Both the position numbers and the translations under genes were made by a program. DNA of 64,000 nt from NCBI GenBank assembly GCA_965205425.1, contig CBDBGZ010000004.1:249682-313681 (forward strand), in the 5' to 3' direction. Positions 16,601 to 53,211 of the stretch are shown in pieces. Within the stretch, counting starts at the first letter, position 1; every line of letters starts with the position of its first letter. The notes under the pieces are model-generated. The model was given only the letters and a program-made list of their open reading frames with translations, was not told the DNA's origin and searched no databases. The stretch is from Nitrosopumilus sp. Lineage in GTDB: Archaea > Thermoproteota > Nitrososphaeria > Nitrososphaerales > Nitrosopumilaceae.

Positions 16601-16609
16601 TTAATCATC

Positions 16610-17239: not shown

Positions 17240-17383
17240 GATTCATGAATTGCAAATTTGGACATAAGGCTAGTGAACATAATGTCTATTGTTCTATATA
17301 GTGACATGATCAAATCACATATTTTCTTTTGATCGCATTTAGAAATAAAAAATAGTTAAAAAAATAAAAAAATAAAAATTAGT

Positions 17384-18991: not shown

Positions 18992-19139
18992 TAAATTATA
19001 AATGGATTTTTAGATTATAAATTGAAACATGGTTTTCTATATGTAGAACATATTTCTAGAGGAAGTATAGATTCTATAGACTTGTTTTCTATTTCTATAA
19101 CATGTTTCTAGAAAATAAGAATAGCACAAGGATGAATTT

Positions 19140-20708
19140 CTATTCTTCACAATTTATCAATAGATCTTTGCTTGAATCAATATAACATCTATCAGAGTAA
19201 GAGCCACCATCAATTACATCTGAACCTGAATTAGCATAAATTAAATCACTTCCAGACTGACCCTTTAAGATATCATTTCCAGAATTTCCTTTAATTACAT
19301 CACTGCCTTCATTACCAGAAATAATGTCATCTCCAGGACCTCCAAAAATACAATCGTTTCCTAATCCTCCAGATATCAAATCATTACCAGCCATTCCAAA
19401 TATTAGATCATCTCCATCAGTTCCAGAAATTACATCATCTCCAGATGTTCCTTCGATGAGATTGTAATCAGAATAATTATGACCACATGTCATCACAGTA
19501 ACCCTTTGATTATCAGTAGAACTATGTCCAGCATTATCAAAGGCTATCCAAATTACATTGTTAGATCCAGGTTTGAATCCATCAGGAGCATTATTTACAA
19601 TGATTTTGATTCCACTTGCATCAGTAGCATTTGCATTTCCAATAAATACATCAGTTAGAAAATCTTCTGCTTCTACAACAATTGAATCAGGGGCAATAAT
19701 CACAGGTTTAGTTTGATCTTCTGATGCAGGCCTAACTTCAGGAGGAGCAACATAATAAGACTCTGTAGGTTGTTCAAAAAATTCTGTTTCAAATGATTGT
19801 ATTGCATGAGTTTGAGAATCAAGTACTAGTAATTCACCATTAATTCCAATTGCCAAATCAGTAATATTTTCAAAAACATCATGATATGGACCAATTTGTT
19901 CATCTACACCAAGTCTTAAATCAGTATTTTCAGATAGATGTAAAATTCTATTATTGCCAGAGTTTACAACAAACATATCTCCTAATGGAGAAACAGTAAT
20001 TGCTTCAGGGGCAAATACATAACTTGGGAAATAAAATGGAAAAGATTCTATTAAAACACCATCTGAAGTGAATTTTTCAATTTTTCCATTTCCTTTATCA
20101 GTAACATAAAGATTTCCTTCTTTATCAGAATCAATTCCAATAACATTTAGAAATTGTCCAGGACCTAAACCGCTAGAACCAAATGATGAAACAAATTCAC
20201 CTTCGGTAGAAAATATTTGAATTCTTTGATTTCCAGTATCAACTACATACAGAAGACCATTACTTGCAGTTATTCCATTAGGATAGAAAAATTGTCCTTC
20301 AGCAATTCCTTTTTTACCCCAAGTTTGAATAAATTCTCCATCCAAAGAAAATTTTTGAATACGATTAAGATCACGATCTGCAACAAAAACAGAATCACTA
20401 GTTACTGCAATTCCAGAAGGATTGTAAAAATCACCTAATTGTTTTCCACTATTCCCCCAATGAGTGACATATTCACCACTGCTAGAAAATTTTTGAATAC
20501 GTTTGTTACCAAAATCAGTTACATAGATGCTACCATCTTCACCTACTGCAACAAATTGAGGATGAACAAAATGTCCAGCTTCAGTAGGCCCATATTTACC
20601 CCATTTATGCAATGGATCATAATCACCATATCCAAATGATGTTTGGGCAAAAGAACTAGCTAAAAGGATTCCAGAAAAAATCATCAGTGTAAAAAATAGT
20701 TTCAACAA
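19140..20708 (-). CDS. Secreted NHL-repeat beta-propeller with HYR/Ig-like domain and RTX-type Ca-binding repeats
   Basis: Signal peptide; GxFxxPxGI...YVxDxxNxRIQxF repeats; DQTKPVI..ATD; GGxGxD nonapeptides at the C-terminus. Confidence 0.88.
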   Translation of the reverse strand: MLKLFFTLMIFSGILLASSFAQTSFGYGDYDPLHKWGKYGPTEAGHFVHPQFVAVGEDGSIYVTDFGNKRIQKFSSSGEYVTHWGNSGKQLGDFYNPSGIAVTSDSVFVADRDLNRIQKFSLDGEFIQTWGKKGIAEGQFFYPNGITASNGLLYVVDTGNQRIQIFSTEGEFVSSFGSSGLGPGQFLNVIGIDSDKEGNLYVTDKGNGKIEKFTSDGVLIESFPFYFPSYVFAPEAITVSPLGDMFVVNSGNNRILHLSENTDLRLGVDEQIGPYHDVFENITDLAIGINGELLVLDSQTHAIQSFETEFFEQPTESYYVAPPEVRPASEDQTKPVIIAPDSIVVEAEDFLTDVFIGNANATDASGIKIIVNNAPDGFKPGSNNVIWIAFDNAGHSSTDNQRVTVMTCGHNYSDYNLIEGTSGDDVISGTDGDDLIFGMAGNDLISGGLGNDCIFGGPGDDIISGNEGSDVIKGNSGNDILKGQSGSDLIYANSGSDVIDGGSYSDRCYIDSSKDLLINCEE

Positions 20709-20776
20709 GCATTAGTGGCAAAGTTAGAGAAACATTACCAAGGTTAGTTTATTTTGTAATTATTGTCAACTTTATG

Positions 20777-20880
20777 TCAAAATGGTTTGTTTACTTCACG
20801 CGTAAATACATAGCTTGCCAAGCCAACCATAGCAAGTACAAATGCTGCCAAAATTCCAAGGCTCAAAATGATAGGTATTC
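20777..20880 (-). pseudogene. Severed 3' end of the ABC-2 permease
   Basis: Removing the IS and one TSD continues the permease frame as GIPIILSLGILAAFVLAMVGLASYVFTREVNKPF*. Confidence 0.9.
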
Positions 20881-22045
20881 GAGACATGGGCATAACTAAT
20901 TCTAATTTTTGAGTCAATTCTCAAATTATTCAAATAGAAAAAGCTAAGGATCTTATCATGTTTTGTTCATTGTAATGTCAAAACAAATGAAAATCCCTAG
21001 CAAGATTCTATCGGAATCATTTCTTATTGGTATTTTGTATTTAGTGGGAATGTTGTCTTTGTATGAAGAGATACTGAAACCCGGTAGACCGTACGTATAC
21101 TCTACAATTCTAATGGTACAGCTGTCCATCATAAAGTCATGGATGAGAATTCCAAGCAACAATACATTACATTATTTTCTTTTGACTAAAGGTATCAATG
21201 ATAAATTGCTCAAGGTTTGCAGACTAGCTCAAATTCCAAACAGAAGAACCATTGACAGGAGATTTCAAGTTCTGCCAATTGGTGATATAATCAGTAATAT
21301 GGAAAGTCTGTTTGTATCAGAGAAACTAGTCGATGACATATCTGCATCAGTGGATAGTTCAATGCTAAAAGCTGCAGGTCCAGTATGGCACAAATCAGAT
21401 ATGAAGCAAAACAGACTTCCAATCTCAGGAATTAATACGGATGCAAAATGGGGTTTTTCAAAATCAAAGGGTTGGATATTTGGGTACAAACTGCATATGA
21501 GTTGTAGTACTGGCAAACTGGTTGTTCCACTATCTGCTGATGTCTCAACTGCAAATGTTCATGACGGCAAGATGTATGAAATACTAACTGAATCTCTTGC
21601 AGGATTTGTCGAGAATATCTTATGTGATCCTGCATATGACAATGGTTCACTGCATCAATTTAGCAACAAGAAAAATCTGAGATTAATTACTCCAATAAAA
21701 CAATACCCGCATACGCCACCAGAGAGAATAAAACTCGTAGAGTTTTACAATTCTGTAATTGGTCAAGAGCTGTATGCAGATAGAAAAGTCTCAATTGAAC
21801 CTCTATTTGAGTATCTCAAAGATAATATTTTTGACATCAGAGTATTGCCTGTAAAGGGATTGCACAATGTCAAATCATTTGTAATGATTTGTGTTCTTGT
21901 GTATCAGTTGACAGTTTACTACAACTGTGCAATTGGTGCAGAGAATCCAAGAACCGTAAAGAGAATGCTTTGCTGTTAGGGAATCACTGAGAATTATTTT
22001 TGTAAATAGTTATGCCCAAGTCTCAAATAGTTATGCCCAAGTCTC
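20881..22045 (+). mobile_element. DDE (IS4/IS5/IS982-like) insertion sequence, intact transposase 20963-21979, doubled right end
   Basis: 18-bp TIR GAGAC(A/T)TGGGCATAACTA; 8-bp TSD AGGTATTC (20873-20880, 22046-22053); VDSS, GYKLH, DPAYD, RKVSIEPLF motifs. Confidence 0.93.
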
Positions 22046-22735
22046 AGGTATTCCACCTTCAGATACGCCTGTCATCAATTCTCTAACCAACAAAACGGTA
22101 TAAGTCACAGGATTTAGTTTTGCAATCACTGCAAGCCAGTCAGGAAGTAATTCTAGTGGGAATAACGCAGGACTAAGCATGAACAATGGCATCCCAAGAA
22201 AATTAATCATGCCCCAAAAAATTTCCTGAGATTTTGCAGTTGCTGCAATCATTACAGATATTCCAGAAAAGCCTAATGAAAATAAAATGACAATTGTCAT
22301 GATAGGTGCAATCATTATTGGATTAGGGAAATTAACACCAATAGCTAATGCAATTCCTAAAATCAAACTAGCTTCTAATGCAGCAATTAAAGAGATTGCA
22401 GACATTTTTCCCAATGCAATTGCAGATCGAGATATTGGAGAAGATAGAGCTTTATTCATAAAACCATACCGTCTATCCCATAAAGTATTGACACCGCCAA
22501 AAATACTTGTAAAAATTGCAGTAAGAATAATTACTCCAGGGGCCATAAATTCAATATATTCACCTTCAAATCCAACTGATTGAATCAAAGGTTGAGTTCC
22601 AGAAAAAGTATTACCAATTACTATAATCCAAATTGCAGGTTGGATTAATCTAATTAAAACACCACTGCGAGATTTTTTGTATCTTTTTAGTTCTCTCCAA
22701 AATATTGTGTAAGCATCATATGCTAAAGTGTTCAT
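22031..22735 (-). pseudogene. ABC-2 type permease, truncated by IS
   Basis: DRRYGFM, SPALFP and NPVTY motifs; last four residues and the stop come from the IS end. Confidence 0.9.
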
Positions 22736-23751
22736 GCACGTAACCTCTTCATTTTTGCATGTTCACGTTTTCTATTGAATCCAGATTCATCACCTTTGAT
22801 TTCATGACCAGTATAAGATATGAAAACATCATCAAGTGTTGGCTGTGTTAAAGAGATAGATTTTATTTTTATTTCAAGTTCTGAGGAAAATTGAAAAATT
22901 TTAGGAATTACTTCAGTACCATTTGAAGCAAATAAGGTAAGTTTGGAACCATCTTCATTAATTTTGGTTACAAATTCAATTTTTCTAATTTTAGATAAGA
23001 AAGGATCACGATTTCGACCTTCATCAATAACGACTGAAATCACTTCATTGCCCATTGCATTTTTCATACTTTCAGGAGAATCAATTACTTGAATTTTTCC
23101 ACCATCAATGATTCCAACCCCATCACATAGCTGATCTGCTTCTTCCATATAGTGTGTAGATACAAAAATAGTCATCTCAAATTCAGTATGAATTTTTTTG
23201 ATATATTCCCAAATTTTTCTACGAGTTTGAATATCTAATCCAACTGTAGGCTCATCAAGAAACAAAACTTTTGGTCTGTGCAGTAAACCACCTGCAATAT
23301 CCAATCTTTTTCTCATACCACCAGAATATGTAACAACTGCTTGATCTTGTTTATCAACAAGTTCGATTAATTCCAAAACTTCATCAATTCTTTTGTTAAC
23401 TTCATTTTTTGGAATATGGTTAAGCTTGGCTTGTAACAAAAGATTTTCTCGTCCTGTAAGATACTCATCTACTGTTGATTCTTGTTGAACATATCCAATA
23501 TTTTCTCGAACTTTTTTAGGATTTGCAGTAACATCAAATCCAGAAATTAATGCTTTACCAGATGTTGGTTTTAGTAAAGTAGTAAGAATCATCATCGTAG
23601 TACTTTTTCCAGCGCCGTTAGGTCCGAGAAAACCAAAGATTTCACCCTTTTCAACAGTAAAGGAAATATCATTTACTGCAATTACATCTCCAAACGACTT
23701 GGTAAGAGATTTTGTTTCTATCGAATACAATACATTGATCGCAGTTGTCAA
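22732..23751 (-). CDS. ABC exporter ATP-binding subunit (DrrA-like)
   Basis: GPNGAGKST, YSGGM, LFLDEPT and STHYMEEA motifs. Confidence 0.95.
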   Translation of the reverse strand: MTTAINVLYSIETKSLTKSFGDVIAVNDISFTVEKGEIFGFLGPNGAGKSTTMMILTTLLKPTSGKALISGFDVTANPKKVRENIGYVQQESTVDEYLTGRENLLLQAKLNHIPKNEVNKRIDEVLELIELVDKQDQAVVTYSGGMRKRLDIAGGLLHRPKVLFLDEPTVGLDIQTRRKIWEYIKKIHTEFEMTIFVSTHYMEEADQLCDGVGIIDGGKIQVIDSPESMKNAMGNEVISVVIDEGRNRDPFLSKIRKIEFVTKINEDGSKLTLFASNGTEVIPKIFQFSSELEIKIKSISLTQPTLDDVFISYTGHEIKGDESGFNRKREHAKMKRLRA

Positions 23752-23822
23752 TTATAAATTGCTAAGTATTAGATTAGTCGATCCTCATAAAAAATTTAAA
23801 GACCAAATAAAGAGTTCAAAAC

Positions 23823-23921
23823 ATGAAAGGATTATGCCAAAAATGTCACTCATCAAATGTTGAGATAACAGTTAATGAAGGAATTCCTGTATGTGAAGTT
23901 TGTTCTAAAAAAATAGACTAA
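23823..23921 (+). CDS. 32-aa zinc-ribbon microprotein
   Basis: Manual translation MKGLCQKCHSSNVEITVNEGIPVCEVCSKKID (two CxxC); TTTAAA about 25 bp upstream. Confidence 0.7.
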   Translation: MKGLCQKCHSSNVEITVNEGIPVCEVCSKKID

Positions 23922-23958
23922 TCAAAAAAGTATTTTGAAAAAAGAAAATTAAAAGAAA

Positions 23959-24411
23959 TTATTCAAGATTCTTGAATTCTTCTTTAGTTATTCTTAAAAT
24001 AACTTTTTCTCCAACTCCCCAAATTTCAGATTTGGACAGAATTTTTGAATGCAATAAACCGTCACTAACTTCTATTGTTTCCAATTCACTAGTTTCAGAA
24101 TTTTTGTGCAATCTTTTTACTTTGCCTATTTTGTGACTATCAATATCAGTTACTGGGATTCCAGTTCTTACAGGAGGTCGACTAAGTAGTAATGTTTCTG
24201 CAGAAAACTTGTCGATATAGTCTTCAGATAGAAAATAATCTCTACGAAATCCTTGATGAATAGTTACACCATTAACAACTAGTGTGTCTTGATTGATGTG
24301 GATGTGTTTGACTTTGCCATATTGAATTCCTTCTCTATCGATGACTTTTTTTCCAGTAAATGTATCTGCAGTAGCTAAATTGCTAGGCATTCCTTCGAGT
24401 TTTACTGACAT
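23959..24411 (-). CDS. Tandem PRC-barrel protein
   Basis: Two GxxVxDxxGxxxGKV repeats. Confidence 0.82.
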   Translation of the reverse strand: MSVKLEGMPSNLATADTFTGKKVIDREGIQYGKVKHIHINQDTLVVNGVTIHQGFRRDYFLSEDYIDKFSAETLLLSRPPVRTGIPVTDIDSHKIGKVKRLHKNSETSELETIEVSDGLLHSKILSKSEIWGVGEKVILRITKEEFKNLE

Positions 24412-24499
24412 GGTACTGAATCAACAGATTTGCTTATCACATCGAATATCAGAAATTTCTATCAATGGGGTTAAATTACTTGACAGAAGAAAATTACGC

Positions 24500-24817
24500 A
24501 TGGAAATCAAAGAAAGGCGCTTCAGACCAATCCTAACCACCAAAGGAAGGAAAACAGGGAAAGAACATTCAGTAATGCTCAGAGCAGTGAATTATAATGG
24601 AAAAATCTACTTTTCTAGACATAAACCCGACGGGGATTGGTTTCAAAATGCCATTATAAATTCAGAGGTTAGAATAAAATACAATGCAAAAACATTCACA
24701 GGAAAAGCTCAGTTAGTTCAAGATGAAGAATTAGATAAAAAAATTTCAATGTTAAAGTATCCAGGAGAAGAAAGAGCTAAAGAAAAAAGAGTTACAATCG
24801 AAGTTACGTTAATTTAA
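24500..24817 (+). CDS. Deazaflavin (F420)-dependent nitroreductase-like split-barrel protein
   Basis: LTTKGRKTGK and DWFQN motifs; probable start ATG 24500. Confidence 0.75.
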   Translation: MEIKERRFRPILTTKGRKTGKEHSVMLRAVNYNGKIYFSRHKPDGDWFQNAIINSEVRIKYNAKTFTGKAQLVQDEELDKKISMLKYPGEERAKEKRVTIEVTLI

Positions 24818-24819
24818 TT

Positions 24820-25725
24820 GGTGATTGTAAACCTATTACCACCAACTATTTTTGAGTAATTATTGGAAAAAACAATCAACATAATTGAGTTATCTAAAAT
24901 AATTCACAACAAATCAACGGCATTGGAATTTCTCTGCAACCAATTCAAAAAGAAAAACACAATTCATTGTTCATCATGTAACTCTGAGAATTACTATATT
25001 ATTTCAAGAGGGAAACTAAGATGCAAAGATTGCAAGACAGATTATAGACCGTTTGCTGGAACATGGTTTGATATCATCAACATTAATTTTACAAAATGGT
25101 TGGCCCTAGTCAAACTATTTGATCTTGGGATTAGTGCAAGACGTGCAGCTAGAGAAGCGGATGTCAGTTATCCAACTGCACTAAATGCTTTTGATTGTAT
25201 TAGATATGCCATACTGTATCATCTAGCAGAATCTGACAAGAAACTAAAAGGGAAAATTGAGGCTGACGAGGCGTATTTTGGAGGAAAAAGAAAGGGAAAT
25301 CGTGGCAGAGGTGCCAAGAACAAGACCATCGTATTTGGCATACTGGAAAGAAAGGGAAAAGTTCACGTTGAGATTGTAAACAACGTCAAAGCTAAAACTC
25401 TTCTTGCAAGCACCATCAAGAAAGTAAAGAAAGGAAGTATTGTGTATACGGACAAGTGGAAAGGATATGATTCTCTAATTTTCAATGGTTACAAGCATCT
25501 CTCAATAGACCACAGCAAAATGTTTGGTAAAGGCGATGTTTACATAAATGGAATCGAAGGGTTTTGGAGTTTTGCAAAAGAGAACATGGCAAAGCATCAC
25601 GGAGTAAGTCCAGGAAAGTTTTTGTTGTACATCAAAGAAATGGAATGGAGATACAACAACAGAGATGAGGATACTTTCTCATTATTGTTAGATTATGTGT
25701 TGGTGGTGAATAATTGATAATCACC
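24820..25725 (+). mobile_element. IS1595-family element, copy 2
   Basis: 906 bp; TSD ATTTAATT; ORF 24863-25717 gives the same protein as copy 1. Confidence 0.96.
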
Positions 25726-26511
25726 ATTTAATTTTTTAAAAAATTTATACAAATAGTAAGTGGTCAATCCACCAAGAATTAAAGTAATTATTAAAAATGG
25801 AATAAATAAATCAGATGTAGTTGTAATCAATTCACCAGAAGATAATGTGATATCAACAACATCTAAAGATTCTTCTTTCAATTTTTCAGGGATTTTAAAT
25901 GCATCCAAATCCATTTCAGATTCAGCAGTTGGAACAGGTGCCATAGTAGGTTGAGCAGATTCATCAGCAGCAAGAGATTTTGAGGATGCAAAATTTTGTG
26001 TAGAATCTTCAACAGACGAAAGTTCTCTACTATACATTGGTTCAGCAATTGGAATTTGAGTATTCTTTTGTATTTGAGATAATGAAAATAAGCCAGATAG
26101 TCCAGTTGCGATTCCAAATCCTGTAACTTTGTAAATATGTCTAAAAGAACGAACTAGGAGTTTACTTTCTCTAGTTTTATCAGATAGTTTGGGGGGAACA
26201 ATTACAAGACTAAATTTTGAAGCAGTGTAAATTTTCATATCCTGTGATTTTGAGTTTTTTTCAACTTTTGATATTTTGACAACCCCAAGATCTTGTAGTT
26301 TGTTAAGATGATATTTTACCAGTTGTAGAGATACATCACTTTTTTGAGCAATCTGAGTAGCAGTCAAATCATCATTAAACAATAATTGAAGGATTTCACG
26401 GCTAGAATCATTTGTAAATATCTCACCAAAAGACTTTATCTTTTCATCATCAGTTGCAAGAATTTTGATATTTTCAGTCAAATCATCATTTGAAAATTCA
26501 TCACTAGACAA
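25693..26511 (-). CDS. ArsR-like winged-helix regulator with membrane segments
   Basis: TATQIAQKSDVSLQLVKYHLNKL helix-turn-helix; C-terminal TM; last 10 aa come from IS1595. Confidence 0.85.
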   Translation of the reverse strand: MSSDEFSNDDLTENIKILATDDEKIKSFGEIFTNDSSREILQLLFNDDLTATQIAQKSDVSLQLVKYHLNKLQDLGVVKISKVEKNSKSQDMKIYTASKFSLVIVPPKLSDKTRESKLLVRSFRHIYKVTGFGIATGLSGLFSLSQIQKNTQIPIAEPMYSRELSSVEDSTQNFASSKSLAADESAQPTMAPVPTAESEMDLDAFKIPEKLKEESLDVVDITLSSGELITTTSDLFIPFLIITLILGGLTTYYLYKFFKKLNGDYQLFTTNT

Positions 26512-26657
26512 TAGAGTTGTTTATGAAAATCTAGTATATGTAAATTGTTTGGTAAAATTTGAATTTCACTAAACTTTTTATCTCAAACTACAAAATAATA
26601 GTAATCACTAAATGATAGAATTTAAAAAAATGAATATCTAAAAAGTGGAGAAGAAAA

Positions 26658-28886
26658 ATGAGTCAAAAAATAACAATACCAATAGTAATTGCCATTTCGG
26701 TCATAGTCACAGCAGGAGTAATGTTTTCAGTAGGATTTGAAAACCAACCACAAATTACTCAAGCACCACAGACAGAAATTATCTATGTTGAGAAAACAGT
26801 TTCAGAATTTTTTGAAGGAACAAATGACATTAAAAAAATATCATCACAGGAAGAGCTAAAAGACATACTTGAAACTTCATCATTACTTGAAGGAAATTTT
26901 TATAGAGATGGATTCATGAGAAGAGCTCAAACAGCAAGTCTTGAAGTTAGTGAAGATACAGCACTGATGGCAGTAGCTCCAATGTTAGAGATGGAGAAAA
27001 ATACATCAGGAGGATCAGACTATTCAACTACAAATGTTCAAGTCCAAAATGTAGATGAACCAGACTATCTCAAAAATGATTCAAAATATGTATACATTGT
27101 ATCACAAAATACACTTTCAATTATAGATGCATATCCTGCTGAATCTGCAAAATTAATTCTAAAAATTGCACTAGACATTGAATCGCAATACATTCAAAAC
27201 ATATTCCTAAATGACGACAGATTGGTAATATTTTACAATGGACAAAGCGATGATGAAATAATTCCACAGTATGACTTTATTCCAAGACGTTCGTACAGTT
27301 CTGTCACACATGCATTAATTGTAGATGTATCAGACAAGGAACATCCTACAATACTCAAAGATTATTCCATTGATGGTCATTTCAGGGATGCACGAATGAT
27401 TGGAGATTATGCATACTTTGTAACAAACAGCAATGTAGACCATCAATATCCGAAACTACCAGTAATTATGGAGGGTTCAAGGATAATTGCAACACCTAAT
27501 GCATTTTACTTTGATAATGTAGAACAATTTTCAAACTTTAACACATTAACTGCGATTGATATTTTTGGAGACAAAATAAGTTCTGAATCATTCCTAATGG
27601 GATATTCTGGGACATTTTATGTATCTAAAGATAACTTTTATCTAACATATCAACAAAATATGCCATTTGGATTTTATGAAAATTCATCTAGGGACAGATT
27701 TTTTGATGTAGTAGTACCACTATTGCCAAATAGCATACAGGAACAAATCAAAGAAATACAAAATGATTCTTCAATTAATGCTACAACACAATGGTTAAAA
27801 ATTTCAGAACTAATGCAAAATTCTTACAATCAGTTGGATAAAGATGACAAAGAAAAACAATTTGAAATAATTAGAGAAGCATTAAACGAATATGACGCCA
27901 AAATTCAAGAAGACACAAGAAAAACAATAATTCACAAAATTTCAATCGATGAAGATAAAATTGAATATGCTGCAAAAGGTTCTGTTCCAGGTAGACTACT
28001 AAACCAATTCTCAATGGATGAAAATGAGGATAGATTCAGAGTTGCAACAACTACAGAATATTATATTCAACATCAAGGTACAGTAAGGGCTAATGCAGTC
28101 TATGTTCTTGATGAACAACTAAACATTGTTGGAGAACTAGATGAAATTGCTCCAGATGAGAGCATTTTCTCGGCACGATTCATGGGTGATAGGCTATACT
28201 TGGTCACATTCCAGCAAATTGACCCATTCTTTGTTATTGACTTGTCATCTGACACCCCAAAAATTCTAGGAGAATTGAAAATTCCAGGATTTTCAAATTA
28301 TTTACACCCATATGATGATGAACATGTTATTGGCTTTGGTAGAGATACAAAAGAAATAGATAATGGTAGAGTCCAACAACTAGGAATCAAAATTGCATTG
28401 TTCAACGTAGCAGATGTAAATAATCCCAAAGTTGCAGATGACATCATAGTTGGAGATAGTTCAACTCATTCAGAGGCATTACATAATCACAAGGCATTCT
28501 TCTTTGACAAAAAAAGGAACATATTATCAGTTCCAATTAGCGGAGATACTGAAAGTCTAAATGGGATTTCAAGTTCCAAAATAGGATTTGCATCAGATTA
28601 TAACCGTTGGAGTGGATTCTATGTATTTGACGTAGATACCTCAACAGGATTTAGTCTCAAAGGAACAGTAACTCACTCTGCTGAAGATACACGTTATTAT
28701 GGAATGGGCAATGCAAGAACATTCTACATAGATGATGTTTTGTATACAGCATCTAAAGAATTTTTGAAGATGAACTCTATGAGTAGTTTGGAAGAAATTA
28801 ATTCAATAAAACTTGAAAACACTGGAAAATTTATCGAGTACATGGATGAAGGAATAATTCGTGAAGCTATACCAGATGGACAATAG
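26658..28886 (+). CDS. Secreted beta-propeller domain protein
   Basis: YSTTNVQVQNVDEPD, LLNQFSMDE, VTFQQIDP and ELKIPGFSNYLHP motifs; N-terminal anchor. Confidence 0.88.
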   Translation: MSQKITIPIVIAISVIVTAGVMFSVGFENQPQITQAPQTEIIYVEKTVSEFFEGTNDIKKISSQEELKDILETSSLLEGNFYRDGFMRRAQTASLEVSEDTALMAVAPMLEMEKNTSGGSDYSTTNVQVQNVDEPDYLKNDSKYVYIVSQNTLSIIDAYPAESAKLILKIALDIESQYIQNIFLNDDRLVIFYNGQSDDEIIPQYDFIPRRSYSSVTHALIVDVSDKEHPTILKDYSIDGHFRDARMIGDYAYFVTNSNVDHQYPKLPVIMEGSRIIATPNAFYFDNVEQFSNFNTLTAIDIFGDKISSESFLMGYSGTFYVSKDNFYLTYQQNMPFGFYENSSRDRFFDVVVPLLPNSIQEQIKEIQNDSSINATTQWLKISELMQNSYNQLDKDDKEKQFEIIREALNEYDAKIQEDTRKTIIHKISIDEDKIEYAAKGSVPGRLLNQFSMDENEDRFRVATTTEYYIQHQGTVRANAVYVLDEQLNIVGELDEIAPDESIFSARFMGDRLYLVTFQQIDPFFVIDLSSDTPKILGELKIPGFSNYLHPYDDEHVIGFGRDTKEIDNGRVQQLGIKIALFNVADVNNPKVADDIIVGDSSTHSEALHNHKAFFFDKKRNILSVPISGDTESLNGISSSKIGFASDYNRWSGFYVFDVDTSTGFSLKGTVTHSAEDTRYYGMGNARTFYIDDVLYTASKEFLKMNSMSSLEEINSIKLENTGKFIEYMDEGIIREAIPDGQ

Positions 28887-43513: not shown

Positions 43514-44065
43514 TTATAACAAAAGAACAGCTGCTGCAAAAACAGTTGTCCATTTTCCATCCTTGTCGCCTTTAGTAGCGGAAGTAATATTATGAGTATT
43601 GTAAATTTCTCCAGAGATCGACCACTGCTGTCTTTTTTCATTCCATGCTTTATCAGCATCAAAAGGAATTCCTAGAGAAGATGCAAGCATTTGTGCGGCA
43701 ATATCTTCAGCATAATCACCGGCCTGAACTTCATTTTGTCCAAAGGCTTCATATTCAGAAAGGTATCCATATCTAGATGTATCCTTTGGTTGTGCAAGAC
43801 CTACAGATGCAGAACAAACTCTATGAGGTTCATTGGTTTGATTTTTAGAATAAATTGTAAATAGAATTTGTCCAGGCGAAATTTTTTTCAGTCCTTCTTT
43901 CCTAGAAATTAATTTTGCATTTGGAGGGAATATACTTGAAATTAGAACTAAGTTTGTTCCGGCAATTCCTGCATCTCTAAGTGCATATTCAAAACTAGTT
44001 AATCTATCTTCATGAACGCCTTTTCCTTTTGTAAGAAACAAATTCTTGGCAACTAAATCTAACAT
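43514..44065 (-). CDS. pdaD: Pyruvoyl-dependent arginine decarboxylase
   Basis: SFEYALRDAGI, NLVLISSIFP (S-S self-cleavage site) and GYLSEY motifs. Confidence 0.92.
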   Translation of the reverse strand: MLDLVAKNLFLTKGKGVHEDRLTSFEYALRDAGIAGTNLVLISSIFPPNAKLISRKEGLKKISPGQILFTIYSKNQTNEPHRVCSASVGLAQPKDTSRYGYLSEYEAFGQNEVQAGDYAEDIAAQMLASSLGIPFDADKAWNEKRQQWSISGEIYNTHNITSATKGDKDGKWTTVFAAAVLLL

Positions 44066-44140
44066 TTCTGAATTGATGAAAGAAAATTATTATTTATACT
44101 TTAATTACAATATGAGGCTAAAATCTCTCAAGTTAAATTT

Positions 44141-44389
44141 TTAAGATTTGTCAGTTTTTCTTTTCTTCTTTCTTTTATCAGGATCCTTTTTGACTTGTGT
44201 CAAATAGATGAATGCAAAGAATGCACCTAATCCAACGTTTATGACACCCATGAAAGTGATCATCATAGTTTGCTGAGGTCCAGCAACAGGAGATAATCCA
44301 ATAACAATGCCAAGAGAGCCTGTTGCAAAAAACATAATCAACAAAAACTTGACTCTGGTAGGTTCGATGTATCTCAATACAAGTATCAA
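44141..44389 (-). CDS. Small two-TM membrane protein
   Basis: Two hydrophobic helices and a basic tail. Confidence 0.7.
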   Translation of the reverse strand: MILVLRYIEPTRVKFLLIMFFATGSLGIVIGLSPVAGPQQTMMITFMGVINVGLGAFFAFIYLTQVKKDPDKRKKKRKTDKS

Positions 44390-44501
44390 AAGATGGGATT
44401 ATTATAAACTGACGGTGAATTTAGCGATTTTCTAATAAGAATTATTTTCAAACGAACCACAGGTAACACTTTAAACCTTCAAAAATTTCATTTTACTTCG
44501 T

Positions 44502-44575
44502 GCCAATGTAGCTCAGCCTGGTAGAGCAATTGATTTGTAATCAATAGGTCATGGGTTCAGATCCCGTCATTGGCT
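44502..44575 (+). tRNA. tRNA-Thr (TGT)
   Basis: Acceptor GCCAATG/CATTGGC, anticodon arm ATTGA-TTTGTAA-TCAAT; TTTAAA upstream. Confidence 0.96.
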
Positions 44576-44611
44576 CTTAAATTTTTATAAAATATAGAAT
44601 CTTAGGATTTG

Positions 44612-44896
44612 GGGTGTGTCCTAAAAGTAGACAAATATAACAATTTTATTCAATTCTGTAACATGTTGATCGCATGGAATCACAACAACCATGCAAAACA
44701 AATCAAAAAGAGACTGCAGTAGATGTCAAATCAAAGCAGATTACAGGTTTGGAAATAACAGATGACAAGTCACATGATTCAAAACATTTCACATCTCTAG
44801 TTGAGCAATCAAAACAATCTGGAAATGTTAGAAAAGTTCTAACTGATGGTGCATATGATGTCAAAGATAATTTCTAATCTTATGGAATCACAACAA
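44612..44896 (+). pseudogene. IS5-like left end fused to a fragment of a different IS5-family transposase
   Basis: First 105 bp match the 52152-52256 end, then AVDVKSKQITGLEIT...HDS...DGAYD. Confidence 0.75.
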
Positions 44897-44899
44897 ACT

Positions 44900-47060
44900 G
44901 TTGCTTCTGTCTTGTCTTGAAATTTACATTCTACATACGATGTCACTTGTTGCATCATCATACCTGCACAATCTATTCCTAAATGTCTCAGAATTAATCC
45001 TAAACTTTTTGATTTGAGAGATAATATGTTCTATAGTTTAGGCATATAAATTTTGAATGAATTATCAACTATTTTAACCCAAAAGATCTATGATCATAGT
45101 TTATACTTACAGAATCATGTCAAAACAAACTAAAGCATTAATGGTATCTTCAGGAAGCCATTTCATGAAAGGAACAAGCATTAATTTTTTAAGAAAAACA
45201 TGCAAGAATGAAAAAAATGCAAAAGCAAAGATAAGACTAAAGGCTGCAATACTAAGAAAACAAGATATTCCGTATTCTGTGATATGTGCCAGTTTGGATG
45301 TCATACCATCAACTCTGTCCTACTGGCTAAATCGAATGGATAAAGAGGGAATAACGGCATCACACCGCAAGAAATATTCTGGTTCTAGATGTTTTCTAAA
45401 TAAAAAACAACTAGTGTCATTAAGAGATGATCTAATTTCAGGTCCAGAAAAGTTTGGATTCAATCAATTCATGTGGAGTACAAGAATGGTAATTACACAT
45501 GTGAATAAAAAATACAACACGCTATACTCTGCACGTGGAATGCGTGAATTGCTACACAGAATTGGATTCTCATCTAAAAAACCAAGACCAACTCATCATA
45601 AATCAGCCTCAAAAGAGGAGCAGAACCGTTTTAAAAAAACGCAAAAAGGACAGTCAACAAATATTCCAAATTGGGATACACCACACTATGTCTGGACGAG
45701 TCAACAAATAAGGTAGCACCCAACATAAAGCGCGGATGGTATCTTGCAGGCAATAACATCACCACACCAATTAATTATACTCGAGAAAAATTTCAATCAT
45801 TTGGTGCATTGGGGAATAACGGCATATTTTTTTGCAGGTTCTATGATAAATCAAACACAGACTCATTTCTTGATTTTTTAGAGTCACTGCAAAAACAATT
45901 TGGTAAGAAACTGTTATTATTTGCAGATAATGCATCATACCACAAAAGTTTCAGAGTAAAAGAATTTCTCAAAGCATCAAAAAATAAAGTGATAATTAGA
46001 TATTTTCCTGCATACACTCCAGAATTAAACCCAATTGAGATACAGTGGAGAGAAGAGAAAAAGGGAACTGCAAACCAATTCTTCGTCAATGGCTCTGAAA
46101 TGAAAAAACACATGCAGAAGAGACTAGATAATGGAGCGGTTCGAGTTGTTAAAGTGTTCAAATATTTAATGCCTTAACTATACTTTAATTCGGATTCTTG
46201 ACTGTATCTTGTTCCATTCCTTTTGATGTATGGTTAGTTTTTTTCCTTTCTTTTTCTTGTATGGTAGAATGCTTGTCTGTTCTGGAAAATCTTTTTCCAC
46301 TTCCAAATACCCAAGGTCATAAAATATCATCACATCTTCGTGTAGTGCAGGATGTCTGATTTTCAGTATCGTATAATCATGTTTTTTACCTGGAGAATGT
46401 GGGGGGGTTTGTGGATTATCTCACCTTTCTGGTTTACGGTGTTTGGTTTTTTACCGTATGTTTTTTCTTTTTGCCTGAATAGTGAGAGTCTTTCTTTTCT
46501 TTTTGTTCTGGAGTCGTCTTGGGATTGGTTGTTCAGTACCATCAGTCATTGCAATCAATCCTGGAAAGAATCGTTGGAGTTGCTGCTGCTGTACATCATT
46601 GATCTTTTTGGAATCAGAGTATAGTTTTACAGGAATAGGAATTGACTTTCTTACTGCAGGCTCTAAATATCTGATGTTTCTGTAGACGTTGCTCTGTGTG
46701 GTCCAATCCAAACAGATATCCTGTCAATTCGCATGTCAGGTATAGTCGATAGTAAACAAGCAGCATTACAAGCTGGTCTTCAAGACTCAAATCAAACTTT
46801 CGTCCAGCTCCGATACTTTTTTTTCTCTTTACTTTGGATAGTCTCTTCTTTTCTTCTATACGGTGATTCTTTCTGACATCCTTTAGAATCACATCAAACT
46901 GTTGCCTAGTCACTCCAGTAAAAGAGAGAAATGATCTTGGCTTTTTTGAGAGTTGCTTGTATGTTAACATGAAATGTGTTAGGTTGTTCTTAGCTTTGGA
47001 TCTTACTGTGAAGGAATTTGTGTAATATGGTAAAATATGTCTAATTACGCAAGAGGTCTA
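44900..47060 (-). mobile_element. Degenerate IS5-family (ISL2/IS702-like) element interrupted by IS630; 3' boundary approximate
   Basis: End TAGACCTCTTGC at 47060; frameshifted transposase from 46970 with FTGV...GAGRK, YYRLY, DGTEQPI.R, HD and IEH motifs. Confidence 0.8.
45034..46180 (+). mobile_element. IS630-family element type 1, copy 2
   Basis: 1147 bp; TA duplication; ORFs 45090-45716 and 45671-46177 joined by a -1 shift at the A7 run 45633-45639. Confidence 0.95.
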
Positions 47061-47067
47061 ATGTAGA

Positions 47068-48699
47068 TTATTCTGATGGGTTAGTGACTCGTCCGATAAA
47101 GAGAATATTTCCAGTAGTGTTATCTTGAATCACAAATAGAAATGGATGATCAGCTATTATTGGCATAGATGCAGATTGCAAAGTCATTAAGAATCCAGTA
47201 GCTGCTGCAGCTTCGGTTCCTTTTTCATTTACATTTACAAATGCTTTGTGAACTGCCTCGCTTACAAATAATTGTGAATTAGACATTCCAGAAAAATCTG
47301 CTGCAATTGGATCAAATGCATCAACCATTCCAAGGTTTTTCAAAATGGGATTTAATCCATAATCAGTTTCTAGCTCAAATTTTGGAATAGACACATTAGT
47401 TTTTTTGCTGTAAAGGGAATTTTGCCAAGTATCAAGAGTTTCTGCAGAAAGATTTTCCTCAATTGAGGACAAACCATCTTTTTCATGAGGCAAAATGATT
47501 AGCATTGATAGTTTGTCTCCCTTATACGGAAGCTGTACAATTTGCAAATCTTCTGTCCGTGTAGAATTCAAATATTTTGTTCCAAGATTCATCATTGGAA
47601 CATCAATACTTTCATCAGGAGTTATCCAAAATGGAGCATCTCGAGTATTTTCAGCATCAAATGGATATGCCCATGTTCCATTAAAGTAAATGGCATTTGT
47701 GATTCCTAATTTTGTGTCAGGTCTTGGTTCTGGTGGAAATAATTCTGTAATTTTTTCTTGAGTTTTCTCGGACACCCATTCATTAATTACATCTACACCG
47801 TTAGTTTCAAAATCAACAGTTTCAACTTTACTGTCATAAAATGTACTTGCAATATCGACATATTCTGAATGTGGATTAAATCCTTCTTGAATCCACAATC
47901 CATTTGCAACATCTAGGCGATATTCAGAGTTGATTTGATTTAGAAGATAGTTAGCATATTGAAACTCTAATTGTCTAGTTGAAGAATCCGATGAAAAATC
48001 AAATATTTGTTGCATTTCATCAGCAGTATTTTCTCTTGCTCCTTCATAGACTATAGCTGCTGCTGTAGAAATACTCCAAGGTGAGAAGAAAACATTATCA
48101 ACATTATCTTGAGAAACATCAGAATAGAAATCAAGTGCAAATTGATTATTTGCATTTACAGTATGAGATATGTCAACAGGAGGTAATACTTTGGAAGATT
48201 TTAGAATATTTGTTAAAGTATATTTTAAAGAAGAAGCATCAGCTGGTGGATTTTCAATTTTAGTAATTTCTACATTAATTTTGTATGCGGTTCCTTCTTG
48301 ATATTCAAATCCATCAATGTTTCCATAAAACATTCCCCATTCATCATCAGAATTTTCTCTAACTAACATACATTGTTGTGGAGCTACACCAACACAATCG
48401 ACAAGTTTAGAGTCAATGTAAAGAGTTGAAATTTTGGGTTCATCTGGATTTACAATATTAGACACTAGAATAATCCATCCACGCAGATTTAATTTCTCAG
48501 CAGTTTGAGGGTAAACGCAGGCAAAATCACCATTTGGTCTTTCAACTAATACACTAGCATCATACCAACAACCAAATTCATCAGAATCATAGCCCCATTC
48601 TTTTTGCATCTTCAGAGATGGGCCTCCTGCATGTGCACTGGTTGCAAGAAGAGTTCCTGAAATTAAAACTGCTAATAAAATAGGAAAAAACTTGTTCAT
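47068..48699 (-). CDS. Secreted serpin with N-terminal DUF4377-like domain
   Basis: Signal peptide from MNKFF; DCVGVAPQQCM...PPADASS; serpin motifs NVFFSPWS, NAIYFNGTW, EKGTEAAAAT and ADHPFLF. Confidence 0.95.
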   Translation of the reverse strand: MNKFFPILLAVLISGTLLATSAHAGGPSLKMQKEWGYDSDEFGCWYDASVLVERPNGDFACVYPQTAEKLNLRGWIILVSNIVNPDEPKISTLYIDSKLVDCVGVAPQQCMLVRENSDDEWGMFYGNIDGFEYQEGTAYKINVEITKIENPPADASSLKYTLTNILKSSKVLPPVDISHTVNANNQFALDFYSDVSQDNVDNVFFSPWSISTAAAIVYEGARENTADEMQQIFDFSSDSSTRQLEFQYANYLLNQINSEYRLDVANGLWIQEGFNPHSEYVDIASTFYDSKVETVDFETNGVDVINEWVSEKTQEKITELFPPEPRPDTKLGITNAIYFNGTWAYPFDAENTRDAPFWITPDESIDVPMMNLGTKYLNSTRTEDLQIVQLPYKGDKLSMLIILPHEKDGLSSIEENLSAETLDTWQNSLYSKKTNVSIPKFELETDYGLNPILKNLGMVDAFDPIAADFSGMSNSQLFVSEAVHKAFVNVNEKGTEAAAATGFLMTLQSASMPIIADHPFLFVIQDNTTGNILFIGRVTNPSE

Positions 48700-48721
48700 T
48701 TTCTTTTTGTTCAGCAAGATC

Positions 48722-48729
48722 TTATAAAG
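48722..48729 (-). promoter_or_regulatory. TATA box of the serpin gene
   Basis: CTTTATAA about 25 bp upstream of ATG 48699. Confidence 0.55.
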
Positions 48730-48811
48730 TGTTCTACTCATAGGGGGTGTGTCCTAAAACTATCCTCTAACATGTTTTGTAACCCCCATCAAATTAACAA
48801 CTCGTATGTTG

Positions 48812-50179
48812 GTACGTGTTTAGGTCCAGACTCACACATATTTCACAATTTCATCTAAAATATTGCAATTCCTAACCTTCCATGTCATAATACAACTCAT
48901 TAAATTTCCAAACATTCTCATACCCTTCTCATTCCTAACACATCCACGAATCTTTCTACAAATTACTGACTCTCGTAATGCACGCTCAGCTGCATTGTTT
49001 GTTGGTTCCACTCCTGGATATAGCAAAAATGTGAACAGGTTATTCTTTGCGTTATTAATCTTGGTTAGAAATTTTTGTAATGATTCATCATCAGTATATT
49101 GCAACAGGATTTGCTCCAATGACAGTATGGCAGAATCATACAGAAAATAATTTGGTTTCTCTATTTTGTATAATGTGATGTATACAAACAATTCTTTCAA
49201 AGATTGATACAATGAGGTAGAATTGTCTGTTTCTAGTTTTTCTGATGTGTGTCTTGCCTCACGCAGTATGTGGGCCCAGCACCTCTGTCTGATACTAAAC
49301 ATATGGTATGGCATCCATCCATCACAGACTGCAACTCCTGCAAATGATGGGAAATGTTTCTGTAACACATTTTTGCCTCGACTTTTCTCAACTGTGATAA
49401 AACACGAGTTCTGGTTCACTCCAGTCCATACCCATCCCGTATTTCCATGAATGGAATATTTTGTCTCATCAAAATGCGCAGATTTTGAGGCACAGATGTC
49501 ATCTCTGATTTTCTCTACGACAGGTTCTAGTGCTGCAGAAGTGTTACACAGACAATTGTTGATTGTACCTGCAGATATTTTTATACAATAAAATGATTGA
49601 AGCATCTTTGCAATGTTTCTTAGTGTAATTCTAGCTGACCACAGAGATAGTATGATCCCTGTCAAATTAAATCCCAAATTTCCTTTCTGGGGTATTGCAC
49701 AATCAGATGTCGTTGTGTTGCCGCAGTTGTTGCAAAAGTATGAGTGGATTACGTGTTTGGTTATGATAACTGGTTGCGGTTTTGGAATTTCTGCAATGAT
49801 TCTGGTTTGTTGTGTGGTTTGTTCTATCTTCTTGCTGCTACATATTGAGCATTGGTCTGTTTTGTGAAGAATGGTCTCTGTTGGTTTGAAATTAGTAGTT
49901 GTTCCCTTGTGTCCCGGCTTTTGTCCTGGTTTGTTGTGATGGTTTGATTTTCTGTTCTTCTTTTGTTTCCTCCAATGGAGAGAATCAGATGATGGCGGAG
50001 AGTTTGGGTTATCATAGTAAGATAATTTTGATTCCAGCTGCTTGATTTTGATTTCCAATTCTATATTTTTTCTTGCCAAATCATCACAGTTTTTGCACGG
50101 TTTAGAGTCCATTATTTCTTGAAAATTCTTCTCTGATCTAAATTATTCGGTTTAATCTAGGCGTGACCTAAACACATAC
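48812..50179 (-). mobile_element. IS66-family element, copy 3 (intact ORF 48832-50112)
   Basis: 1368 bp; TSD GTATGTTG. Confidence 0.96.
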
Positions 50180-50949
50180 GTATGTTGTAACAAATTACAC
50201 GCAACGCCAACTCTTTTCTTTGAACCAACTTGTTTTTTGATGACAAGCTATTTCCAAAGATTCTTTTGAGTACTGCAAATACTGATTCAACAAGTGACCT
50301 CTTGTGATAATGTCTGTCAAATTCATCTTGATTGTCCTGGAATAATGTTATCATTTTTTTCCATGATGCAGAGCCTTTGGGATTTCTAACTGTGTTCTTC
50401 TTTGGTTTGATGTATGGTATCTTTTGCAGAGTAGCTAGCTACCATATTGCAAATGTCTCGTGACAAATATGCAGGATCTGCACAAAAATCACCAATTCCC
50501 TTTGGAATGTCTTTGATTAGTTTTTTGAGAATTGGTGCATCACCACGAGTTCCTTTGGTAATGTCAAAAGATACTACTATTGCCATGGTCTGTATTGCAA
50601 TTAGGATGTGCAGTTTTAGATATAATTTCTTGGATTTGTGTGCGTGTTTGTCTTGATGTCAAACCAAGCCTCACATCTTTTGGTACCAAATCCTGAACTG
50701 TCAGGAGCTATGTTTTTTTTTTTGATTGGTTCTGTGAGTTTTGCGTTTACCTTTTTCAAACAAGGCATTGGAATTCTTTTTAGACCATCATTAATGACAG
50801 TCTTGCTTGGTGCTTTTTTGAGCTCCATTATTTCCAACAGATCCGGCCTTGATCTCAAGTGGGACTTTATGAAACGATAATCCAATCCAAACTTTACCTT
50901 TAGCATTGCACAGACATTATCTTTGCTTTTGTTGGAAATGCAGGACGTC

Positions 50950-52045
50950 TACCTCAGATCATAAGTCTTTTCAATTTATTGTTCTTGCAAAATACTGATA
51001 CATATTCAAATTAAATTTGTGGGTTCTAAAATATTCCATAACTGTATGTCTCATCTCATGAATAGATTCATAAAATTCTGATTCAACATTAACATGTTTG
51101 CACTGTCTCCAAATCTCTTCAATCATACTCAAATGCGGGGAGCCTCTCGGAAGATATGCCAGTTTGACATCCTTGTTTTTGTGCAGATATTTTTTCACAT
51201 CATTAGCTTTGTGTTGTGGTGCCCTATCAACGATAACAAATATTTTCCCGAATTTTTTACGAGCTGCCTCCAAATAATCCATAAATGCAATTGCGTTAAA
51301 TTTTTCATACGATCTAAAAAAACTTTGATTGCCATCTGTCACCATTCCATAAACCAAAAATCTTTGATGTGATCCTCTCCAAGGTACAATCATTCGTTGG
51401 TGTACATCTGTCCAGTATTTTTTGCCAAGACGTACATCGTCTACAAATACAGACTCATCTTGGATGAATACTGTAAAACCTTTCTTTTTTGCCTTTTCTA
51501 TGCGTGAAATGATGCGGTTTTTCCACTTGCGGCATGTATCCTTGGATGCTGCTCGCACATGTACCTTTTGTGGAACCTTTGGTTTTAGATTCCATTTGTG
51601 CATCAAACGACGCACATGAGTGATATGATATGTAATGCGTGTTCTGTAAAATATGAACTGCATCAGTTTTTTTGGAGTCATGCCGTCTGAAATTTTCTTA
51701 AATGTACGCTCTATTTTTTGTAATTTTTTGTGTGAAATTAATGGCGGACGGCCAGAACGAGGAAGGTCCTCCAGGCCCTCCAATCCATATTTTTCAAATG
51801 AATCAAGCCAATTCCTTACAGAATTGTAGGTACAAAACATTTGGTTGGCAGTTTCAGCAATTGTGAATTTGTTGATTTTAATAATGCACATTGCATGTAA
51901 TCTTGTTTTTTTGTGAATATTTTTTTCTTTTTTGTAGGCCTGGAGTAATTCGTCATTTGTAATGTCCATGAAATTATTTCTAACTACTGATCAAAAAGTA
52001 TTGCTATTTGTTTTGAAAAATTGCAAAGAATTATGCTCCGAGGTA
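50950..52045 (-). mobile_element. IS630-family element type 2 (single ORF 50971-51969)
   Basis: 20-bp imperfect TIR TACCTC.GA.CATAA.TCTT; RSGRPP, QDES, DRAPQH, SPHLSMIE motifs; flanked by TC. Confidence 0.93.
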
Positions 52046-52303
52046 TCCGCCTGTCTTTGGTTCCCATGGTGTATCCATACTCCAAACTGTCTTCTTTACT
52101 TTTTCCAAGAATAGAATCTCTTCATCCTTGCGATATGTGCCATATACTTGCCAGTCTCTTTTTGATTTGTTTTGCATAGTTGTTGTGATTCCATGCGATC
52201 AATATGTTACAGAATTGAATAAAATTATTATATTTGTCTATTTTTAGGACACACCCTAGGATTTGGCAATACGATTAAGTAAGCTAAGATTGAATTTAAA
52301 AAA

Positions 52304-53113
52304 ATGAGTTTTGAAGAATCAGATTTTAATGAAAATAATAATGATAAAGAAATTCTAGTGAAAAAATCAACTTTTAACGGATTAGTAGTTGGGCTAATTG
52401 TTTTAGTGGGGATTACAACATTCTTTGCAGGGTCTTACTTTATAAATTTAAATTCTGATCAAATTTCTAGCGATGATTTAGATAAAGCAATTGCTAAACT
52501 GGAACTAAAATTATTACAAAATCAATTACCTACAAACCAACCAACAGAACCAGTAAAAATTTCAGCAGATGATGACCCATTTTTTGGAAATCCTGATGCA
52601 CCAATTACAATAATTGAATTCTCAGATTTTCAATGTCCATTTTGTGCAAGATTCCACACTCAAACTTTGCCAGCAATTTTTACTGAATATATTGAACAAG
52701 GTAAAGTGAAATTAGTTTTCAGAGACTTTCCAATTCTACGCATTCATTCTAATGCATTATCAGCATCAGTTGCAGCAGAATGTGCAAATGATCAAGGAGA
52801 TTTCAAAGGAATGCACGATATATTATTTGAAAAACAAAATGAATGGAACCAATTAGAAACAGTAGAGGCATTATCTTTGTTTAGTCAGTATGCCTCAAAC
52901 ATGCAATTAGATCAAGAATCATTTGATTCATGCCTTACTAGTGGAAAACATATTTCAGAAATTAGAAAAGATCTTGATGATGGAAGAGATTACGGAGTGT
53001 CTGGAACCCCAGGATTTTTTGTAGGAAATGATCAGATAGGATATGTGGAATTAAAAGGAGCCCAACCATTTGAGAGTTTTAAAAAAATAATTGATGCTCA
53101 ACTAGATGCTTAA
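52304..53113 (+). CDS. DsbA/thioredoxin-like membrane-anchored oxidoreductase
   Basis: EFSDFQCPFC, GVSGTP and GAQP motifs. Confidence 0.92.
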   Translation: MSFEESDFNENNNDKEILVKKSTFNGLVVGLIVLVGITTFFAGSYFINLNSDQISSDDLDKAIAKLELKLLQNQLPTNQPTEPVKISADDDPFFGNPDAPITIIEFSDFQCPFCARFHTQTLPAIFTEYIEQGKVKLVFRDFPILRIHSNALSASVAAECANDQGDFKGMHDILFEKQNEWNQLETVEALSLFSQYASNMQLDQESFDSCLTSGKHISEIRKDLDDGRDYGVSGTPGFFVGNDQIGYVELKGAQPFESFKKIIDAQLDA

Positions 53114-53211
53114 ATAACAAGCGTTTATTAGACCACAATCGTGATCAAGCATCAGAATAATGACGAGTGGGCAACGAGCTTTTTCGTCATTGCCAAAGAG
53201 AAAAAAATAAA

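Follow-up and report, generated by a model that had tools for sequence, protein, structure and literature searches.

A serpin gene within a very probable, now decayed composite transposon beside tRNA-Thr in Nitrosopumilus

Here, we examined a 64,000-nucleotide stretch of a Nitrosopumilus assembly (G000; 2.2 Mb in 9 contigs), referred to as the window and corresponding to C4:249682-313681, in which a serpin gene is enclosed between two inverted ends of one insertion sequence (IS), close to a gene for tRNA-Thr(TGT). The tRNA gene (44502-44576, plus strand) is intact, and an IS end begins 35 nt after it, marking the start of a unit of 7,645 bp; beyond the unit lies an intact gene for a DsbA/thioredoxin-like protein (52304-53113, plus strand) with a conserved upstream motif, and the insertion broke neither of these genes. 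The outer arms of the unit (44612-44716 and 52152-52256) form a 105-nt inverted repeat, 96% complementary with 4 differences, and its outermost positions, 44612 and 52256, are both the left end of one element of probable IS5-family affiliation, hereafter ISa, in inverted orientation. Directly abutting these two ends, at 44603-44611 and 52257-52265 (both plus strand), is an exact 9-bp duplication, TAGGATTTG. The window holds 6 matches to this 9-mer against 0.9 expected, the 4 besides the flanking pair all falling at 16237-28590, and a scan of the window found no third copy inside the unit; given the window composition, the chance of a given 9-mer at a fixed place is about 6e-6. No such duplication accompanies the inner IS (48745-52256), where 6 of 9 positions are mismatched. 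All these boundaries had been proposed in a preliminary description of this DNA, together with the spacers around the serpin gene (45 nt upstream with a TATA box, 7 nt downstream) and the distance to the tRNA gene, and all of them hold as described.

The state of the site without the unit is also available. The assembly combines sequence from two Nitrosopumilus populations that occur together and are about 91% alike; we denote them B (the window) and A (the sister, including contigs C8 and C9). In population A, C8:54603-54612 is an empty site carrying one TAAGATTTG, identical to TAGGATTTG at 8 of 9 positions, and the flanks on its two sides are contiguous and 91% alike to those of the unit; the joint of the empty site (44586 to 52260) was found in 4 of 4 runs examined. 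The outgroup genome G163 has an empty site as well, and tRNA-Thr adjoins the DsbA-like gene in 14 of 18 loci from relatives, with other DNA between them in 3 and 1 locus being cut. The pairing of the duplication and the empty sites therefore argue for one-step movement between two ends of the same type, as the preliminary description had held, and its expectation that an alignment of this interval would uncover an empty site with a single 9-mer was borne out on C8. Of the counter-explanations that it had named, relatives carrying the serpin here without IS ends were not encountered, and an inversion between IS copies was rejected, given that such recombination would not separate a flank from the end type beside it and that the flanks are joined directly in the empty allele. 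Thus, the unit is very probably a real composite transposon that has since decayed.

The interior of the unit consists of the serpin gene and nested or truncated mobile elements. The left arm comprises the first 105 nt of ISa (left end with the 15-bp terminal repeat; 44612-44716, plus strand), with 2 differences from the common copy, and is fused through deletions to an internal fragment of a second IS5-family element, ISb (44717-44862, plus strand; 83% to nt ~501-660), both joins of which involve deletions, the right one at the 7-nt microhomology ATAATTT. There follows ISc, a third, TA-flanked IS of the HTH_Tnp_4 type (44863-47058, minus strand; ~92% to other copies), whose end at 47058 is intact, whose other end (~50 nt) is gone and whose gene is broken; an IS630 element is nested in it (45034-46180, plus strand), with a TA duplication and 99.8% identity to one other copy in the same C4 segment. 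The serpin gene, which is the cargo (47068-48699, minus strand; 543 aa), is separated by 7 nt after its stop codon from the TA target of ISc and is preceded by 45 nt of its native upstream region (48700-48744, minus strand). The right arm is a full-length ISa (minus strand, right end at 48745 and left end at 52256), interrupted twice: by an IS66 element (48812-50179, minus strand; 8-bp duplication GTATGTTG; intact 426-aa transposase; 99.6-99.8% to other copies in the same C4 segment) and by a second IS630 element (50950-52045, minus strand; 2-bp duplication; intact 332-aa frame). Relative to the common ISa, this arm has 12 substitutions and 5 insertions of 1-4 nt; most of the short insertions (50180-50949) repeat a few bases in tandem (CA, TAG, TAGC) and look like slippage or the footprints of departed elements. 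A working ISa transposase is present in neither arm, the right one having four frame-shifting insertions and two nested IS and the left one being reduced to 105 nt. With both frames dead, the unit is now a non-autonomous relic that would be mobile only with transposase supplied from elsewhere; intact ISa copies persist elsewhere in the assembly. Removal of the three nested elements, each of which carries its own duplication, leaves ~4.0 kb, in agreement with the proposal that the unit was shorter before nesting.

ISa itself is represented in the assembly by 17 intact copies of 1,026-1,027 bp with 15 bp common to the left and right ends; 9 of these copies are flanked by exact 9-bp duplications, 2 by swapped ones and 6 by none. 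Among 39 ISa ends surveyed in the assembly, the only left-left pair sharing a target is that of the serpin unit. In all 17 copies, the transposase is split into two frames that overlap at 8 consecutive A residues, which suggests a -1 frameshift; both frames have NF033579 as the best match (E 2e-7 and 5e-34, 30.6 and 118 bits), each below the whole-protein cut-off of 140, and the transposase matches PF01609 (DDE_Tnp_1), with plasmid neighbours at 27-30% annotated as IS5. ISa DNA occurs in 5 of 150 other genomes of the genus, including a 98% identical fragment in a different species (G144 C1:848795-849475), indicative of movement across species. At C4:141352-152994, two direct ISa copies surround 9.6 kb and have swapped 9-bp flanks, the outer pair matching and the inner pair matching, as would be left by a cointegrate or by recombination of a circle into an IS copy, and two orphan right ends with an identical outside flank (C7:98894 and C9:74223) point to a fragment copied as a passenger. 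A fixed distance of ISa to TATA boxes was considered and rejected, a TATA-like word lying 7-11 nt past the duplication at just 4 of 39 ends.

Targeting of the tRNA neighbourhood by ISa was considered and is not supported: only 3 of 39 ISa ends lie within 250 nt of a tRNA, and other DNA directly follows tRNA-Thr in 17 of 26 serpin-bearing relatives. Thus, the flank after tRNA-Thr is a tolerant hotspot. Neither is the unit a tRNA-targeting integrative island, as there is no integrase among the open reading frames (ORFs) scanned, the tRNA is intact and single, and the insertion lies 26 nt past it. At C9:1042270, 2 nt separate an ISa copy from a tRNA gene end. In many relatives (loci L030, L032, L039 and L161-L189), other DNA follows tRNA-Thr(TGT), and three loci have tRNA-end-like remnants before the DsbA gene, such as integrase islands leave.

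The completeness of the assembly is 99.55%, contamination is 5.23% and multi-copy sequence makes up ~18%. Beyond ~210 kb, C4 (~100 kb, C4:210000-313681) duplicates genes of C5, C6, C8 and C9 at 84-96% identity and carries its own IS66 and IS630 subfamilies, such that C4 is probably a chimera of the two populations. Both versions are present in contigs of public runs, and their ratios vary by run (right flank, window type to other type: 845/800, 1636/1004, 69/125 and 6/21); we therefore treat them as two populations and not as one duplicated genome, the changing allele ratios ruling out a merodiploid duplication. Depth was not read as cell share, the variation between runs alone being used. Two of the runs, X1 and X2, come from one sample, which may be the source of the assembly. 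Window-type contigs in X1 and X2 are ~1.4 times deeper on the left flank (44054-44639) and the serpin than on the right flank (52257-53200), and the sister type is level. A low-divergence duplicated block (C4:310515-312565 and C4:193311-195322, at the end of C4), with synonymous divergence (dS) of 0-0.09, possibly reflects further transfer between the populations. The nested IS66 and the left IS630 have their nearest matches in the B segment (99.6-99.8%), copies elsewhere reaching no more than 98% and 90%, respectively, and both therefore likely arrived while the unit was already in B.

The cargo is predicted to be a secreted inhibitory serpin trapping extracellular proteases. We place its start at the ATG at 48699, 45 nt from the IS end, because in the sister copy the ATG farther upstream, at 48741, does not share the reading frame of the gene. 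The serpin domain is complete (PF00079, 400 bits, profile positions 2-370; conserpin match with E 1e-73) and is preceded by WING-49 and DUF4377 domains, and the N-terminus looks, by eye, like a signal peptide. Inhibitory serpins have the P17-P9 hinge motif ExGTEAAAA according to the available part of PMC8233489, which the hinge of the window copy, EKGTEAAAA at residues 492-500, fits. Counting from the hinge, the predicted P1-P1' pair is Gln508-Ser509, the codon of Gln508 lying within a stretch that run contigs match without difference (47084-47457). The predicted P1 residue is Glu in population A, in G163 and in two further close alleles, compared with Gln in the window copy. Of 120 homologues, 119 could be tallied for the residue preceding the conserved Ser, with Glu in 42, Thr in 41 and Gln in 22; given these 22 homologues, Gln at the predicted P1 is a normal variant and not a knock-out. 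The reactive loop of 13 codons holds 3 of the 23 changed codons (p ~0.02, in a test chosen post hoc). Upstream of the gene, a TATA-like box, TTTATAAG, lies on the minus strand at 48721-48728; the moved promoter (48700-48730) is one base short compared with both relatives, which brings it nearer to the TATA consensus (TTTATAAG versus TTTATGAA).

Polarised on G163, the B branch of the serpin accumulated 13 replacement and 17 silent changes (dN/dS ~0.22) and the A branch 11 and 11 (dN/dS 0.29), with 7 sites lacking polarisation. The right arm has 6 disruptive hits per 1,026 bp; the same rate predicts 9.5 in the serpin gene, where 0 were observed. Judging from these patterns, purifying selection on the serpin is real and acted while an IS adjoined the gene, so that the earlier claim of selection on the cargo stands as regards the intact frame and the substitution ratio, but its timing after the move does not, because the selection is not datable to that period.

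An earlier location of the serpin is suggested by the relatives. In population A, the serpin gene resides at C9:437274-438953, 96.3% alike and with no IS, and the homology between the B and A copies stops exactly at the right end of ISa upstream and 1 nt past the stop codon downstream. The last 9 nt of the upstream region (48736-48744) are identical to the sister locus on C9 and likely represent the inner copy of a donor-site duplication. The outgroup orthologue (G163:830079-831753) is 89% alike; ~80 nt upstream of the serpin are common to A and G163, and in both a Lactamase_B gene (metallo-beta-lactamase fold) lies upstream on the same strand, although the island of the two genes occupies different chromosomal places. 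Because both relatives keep the serpin beside Lactamase_B, the tRNA-Thr site appears to be secondary, that is, judging from one outgroup, the serpin would have left the Lactamase_B neighbourhood for the tRNA-Thr site and not the reverse.

Of 151 genomes of the genus, 41 have serpins; among the 150 other than the present one, 1 contains a full-length DNA match to this gene, and metagenome and genome scans yielded no close serpin locus beyond that of G163. None of the 3 other serpins of the assembly has an ISa end within 12 kb, and neither this genome nor the loci retrieved from relatives yielded a second ISa-bounded serpin. Thus, the preliminary view that the transposon is spreading the inhibitor goes beyond what is found here, namely, one event, no second ISa-flanked serpin and no intact ISa transposase frame in the unit. 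More generally, a transposase-like match is present near the serpin locus in 10 of 29 genomes, a frequency that drops to 1 of 29 around a core gene of these genomes and to 2 of 21 for a different gene family; the survey covered one serpin locus with 1.5-kb flanks for 29 of the 40 other serpin-bearing genomes, queried with 38 multi-copy ORFs of this assembly, and in these counts the genomes are non-independent and accessory genes tolerate IS generally. Conserved synteny of a 738-aa upstream gene with the serpin was considered and is not borne out in relatives; unannotated family members of 738-990 aa lie 1-8 kb from serpins in G142, G135 and G153 (loci L149, L150 and L142).

The B and A serpins differ by a dS of 0.093, versus a median of 0.318 for 50 B-A gene pairs (restricted to genes with one partner only and a length of 150 aa or more, shorter pairs being excluded from the median). 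There are 32 silent differences, where 47-50 would be expected after correction for a slowly evolving gene and 95 without it (p 0.003-0.01, with sites treated as independent), and all non-serpin pairs within C4:244,000-305,000 have a dS of at least 0.11, nearly all above 0.2. Taken alone, the serpin dS tilts modestly towards lateral transfer, and, as it remains low after the slow-gene correction, we favour lateral gain from an A-like donor as the better reading, with relocation after recombination as the main rival. On balance, we consider it probable that the unit is a decayed composite transposon around one serpin gene, that a single transposition brought it here and that lateral transfer from the sister population probably came first.

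Several observations weigh against this reading. As many as 5 of the 50 pairs, including the serpin, have a dS of 0.093 or less, one of the 4 others being a TFB gene; compared with G163, the dS of the serpin is 0.38 and that of the linked Lactamase_B gene is 0.36, against a median of 0.86 over 55 comparisons, and part of the low serpin dS may be specific to a slow gene or stem from older exchange. The 7 nt after the serpin stop match neither relative; the rest of the B genome is outside the assembly, so that a donor locus in B lies beyond the data; and the inner end of the second arm is lost, which makes the original left arm invisible. Among the contigs of public runs, no record spans the whole unit, the two inner serpin junctions are not among the matches listed, and the contig at the left junction (44546-44639, in X1 and X2), which leads from the tRNA gene into 28 nt of the IS end without difference, falls 3 short of a 31-letter bridging rule. 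In a rival reading, the same composite transposition would have taken the serpin from an earlier locus of B itself and reinserted it in the same chromosome, the closeness of the alleles being due to earlier homologous recombination or a slow synonymous rate. The shared low dS of the serpin and Lactamase_B and the other low pairs fit such a relocation within the lineage, as do the only two serpin alleles among the run contigs listed, which one relocated copy predicts; however, the shortfall of silent differences, with or without correction, and the higher dS of all other pairs around the serpin argue against it, and we regard it as possible but rather unlikely.

With its inner end deleted, the left arm does not disclose its history directly, which would accommodate assembly in place in two steps: an inverted ISa pair would have come first and the serpin later, through recombination with the right arm or inside-end transposition into a serpin-bearing circle. 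The swapped duplications at C4:141352-152994 do show ISa fusing circles with the chromosome in this assembly, but two rare events would be required, the unit contains no third TAGGATTTG, and the 39 ends include no inverted ISa pair without cargo, making this scenario very improbable. We give similarly little credence to an artefact in which the outer ends are real and the interior was mis-joined through repeats in the two-population sample. The contamination, the duplicated gene content of C4 and the unequal window-type depth of the two flanks would be compatible with mis-joining; yet a contig from X2 (52202-52720) crosses the right junction without difference and includes both variants specific to the arm, both outer junctions and window-specific variants are present in run contigs, each nested element has its own correct duplication, the order of the flanks is that of relatives, and the depth of the window-type serpin allele equals that of the window-type left flank. 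The stretch at 44718-44853, uncovered by run contigs, is a hole and not evidence. Thus, the misassembly that the preliminary description had listed as a possible objection is made unlikely by the run contigs, although no record extends across the unit.

Under the preferred reading of a single composite transposition followed by decay, the history of the locus could be as follows. At the earlier locus of the serpin, an ISa copy would have landed 45 nt ahead of the gene, so that the promoter stayed with the gene, and a second, inverted copy would have stood downstream. Transposition would then have used the two outer left ends as a pair, their 15-bp terminal repeats being the same as those of the right end, and joined them to a 9-bp staggered target, as the duplication pairing and the empty sites indicate. 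If this step is accepted, the low synonymous divergence makes it reasonably probable that the serpin allele came from a lineage near the sister population and not by descent. Subsequently, to judge from the present anatomy, deletions shrank the left arm to 105 nt, fusing it to the internal IS5-family piece and to an ISc without one end, and the IS66 and two IS630 elements entered. Finally, the Glu-to-Gln change at the predicted P1 would shift the range of proteases trapped.

A broader proposal, which we put forward as speculative and rather doubtful, is that the transposon carried the serpin across a species-level gap (~91% identity) between two archaea of one sample, that P1 then switched from Glu to Gln under selection, and that, in view of the transposase-rich serpin loci of the genus (10 of 29), host-associated Nitrosopumilus generally use IS pairs to exchange and retune protease inhibitors. 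In sponge-associated ammonia-oxidising archaea, serpins have been proposed to serve in interaction with the host, and their distribution in the genus is patchy. The locus described here provides a base-exact case of serpin relocation for which the empty site, the earlier locus and the outgroup are all known, as well as a natural pair of alleles that differ at the predicted P1 residue and can be assayed side by side.

The sponge-associated ammonia-oxidising archaea are enriched in serpins and transposases, for which protection from host proteases or their own has been proposed, according to the accessible sections of PMC6790972 and PMC7848895, and a figure legend in the former points out tRNAs next to serpin loci as frequent sites of insertion. 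The serpin of the window resembles those covered in these sections in belonging to family I4 in Nitrosopumilaceae, in its predicted extracellular location and in its transposase-rich genome. It differs in that it lies inside a delimited transposon, which these sections do not describe for any serpin, and in that no S8 protease gene travels along. In the literature covered, which excludes most subscription papers and whose supplements may list such loci, we found no serpin in a composite transposon and no natural composite transposon in Nitrosopumilaceae. A possible composite in Halobacterium is mentioned in the part of PMC7193027 at hand. New here are the low synonymous divergence of the serpin, pointing to lateral transfer, and the predicted P1 change from Glu to Gln. 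Engineered composite transposons for halophilic archaea were reportedly described in 1994.

The carrier is close to a known group of elements. In the excerpt of PMC3281130 available, the IS903 group of the IS5 family is tabulated with ~1,050 bp, inverted repeats of 15-27 bp and a 9-bp duplication, which the size (1,026 bp), terminal repeat (15 bp) and duplication (9 bp) of ISa fit. ISa is like the members ISPam1, ISPko1 and ISPpa8 in its length (~1.0-1.05 kb), 15-bp terminal repeats, 9-bp duplication and, going by its best profile match, DDE_Tnp_1 transposase; unlike them, it encodes the transposase in two overlapping frames at 8 A, each half staying below the NF033579 cut-off. Composite transposons are defined in the passages available from PMC3281130 and PMC1676026, and the latter argues that they are short-lived, which the decayed arms fit. 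As to the architecture of the unit, its counterparts are inverted-arm composite transposons of the Tn903, Tn5 and Tn10 type. Like them, it has two copies of one IS around a passenger, a duplication of the length typical of the IS outside and the same end outermost on both sides. Unlike them, it has an archaeal host, a serpin instead of a resistance gene, a left arm of 105 nt and a twice-interrupted right arm, and it is non-autonomous and known from one occurrence. Thus, the transposition mechanism is an ordinary, textbook one, and it is the archaeal host and the serpin cargo that are uncommon.

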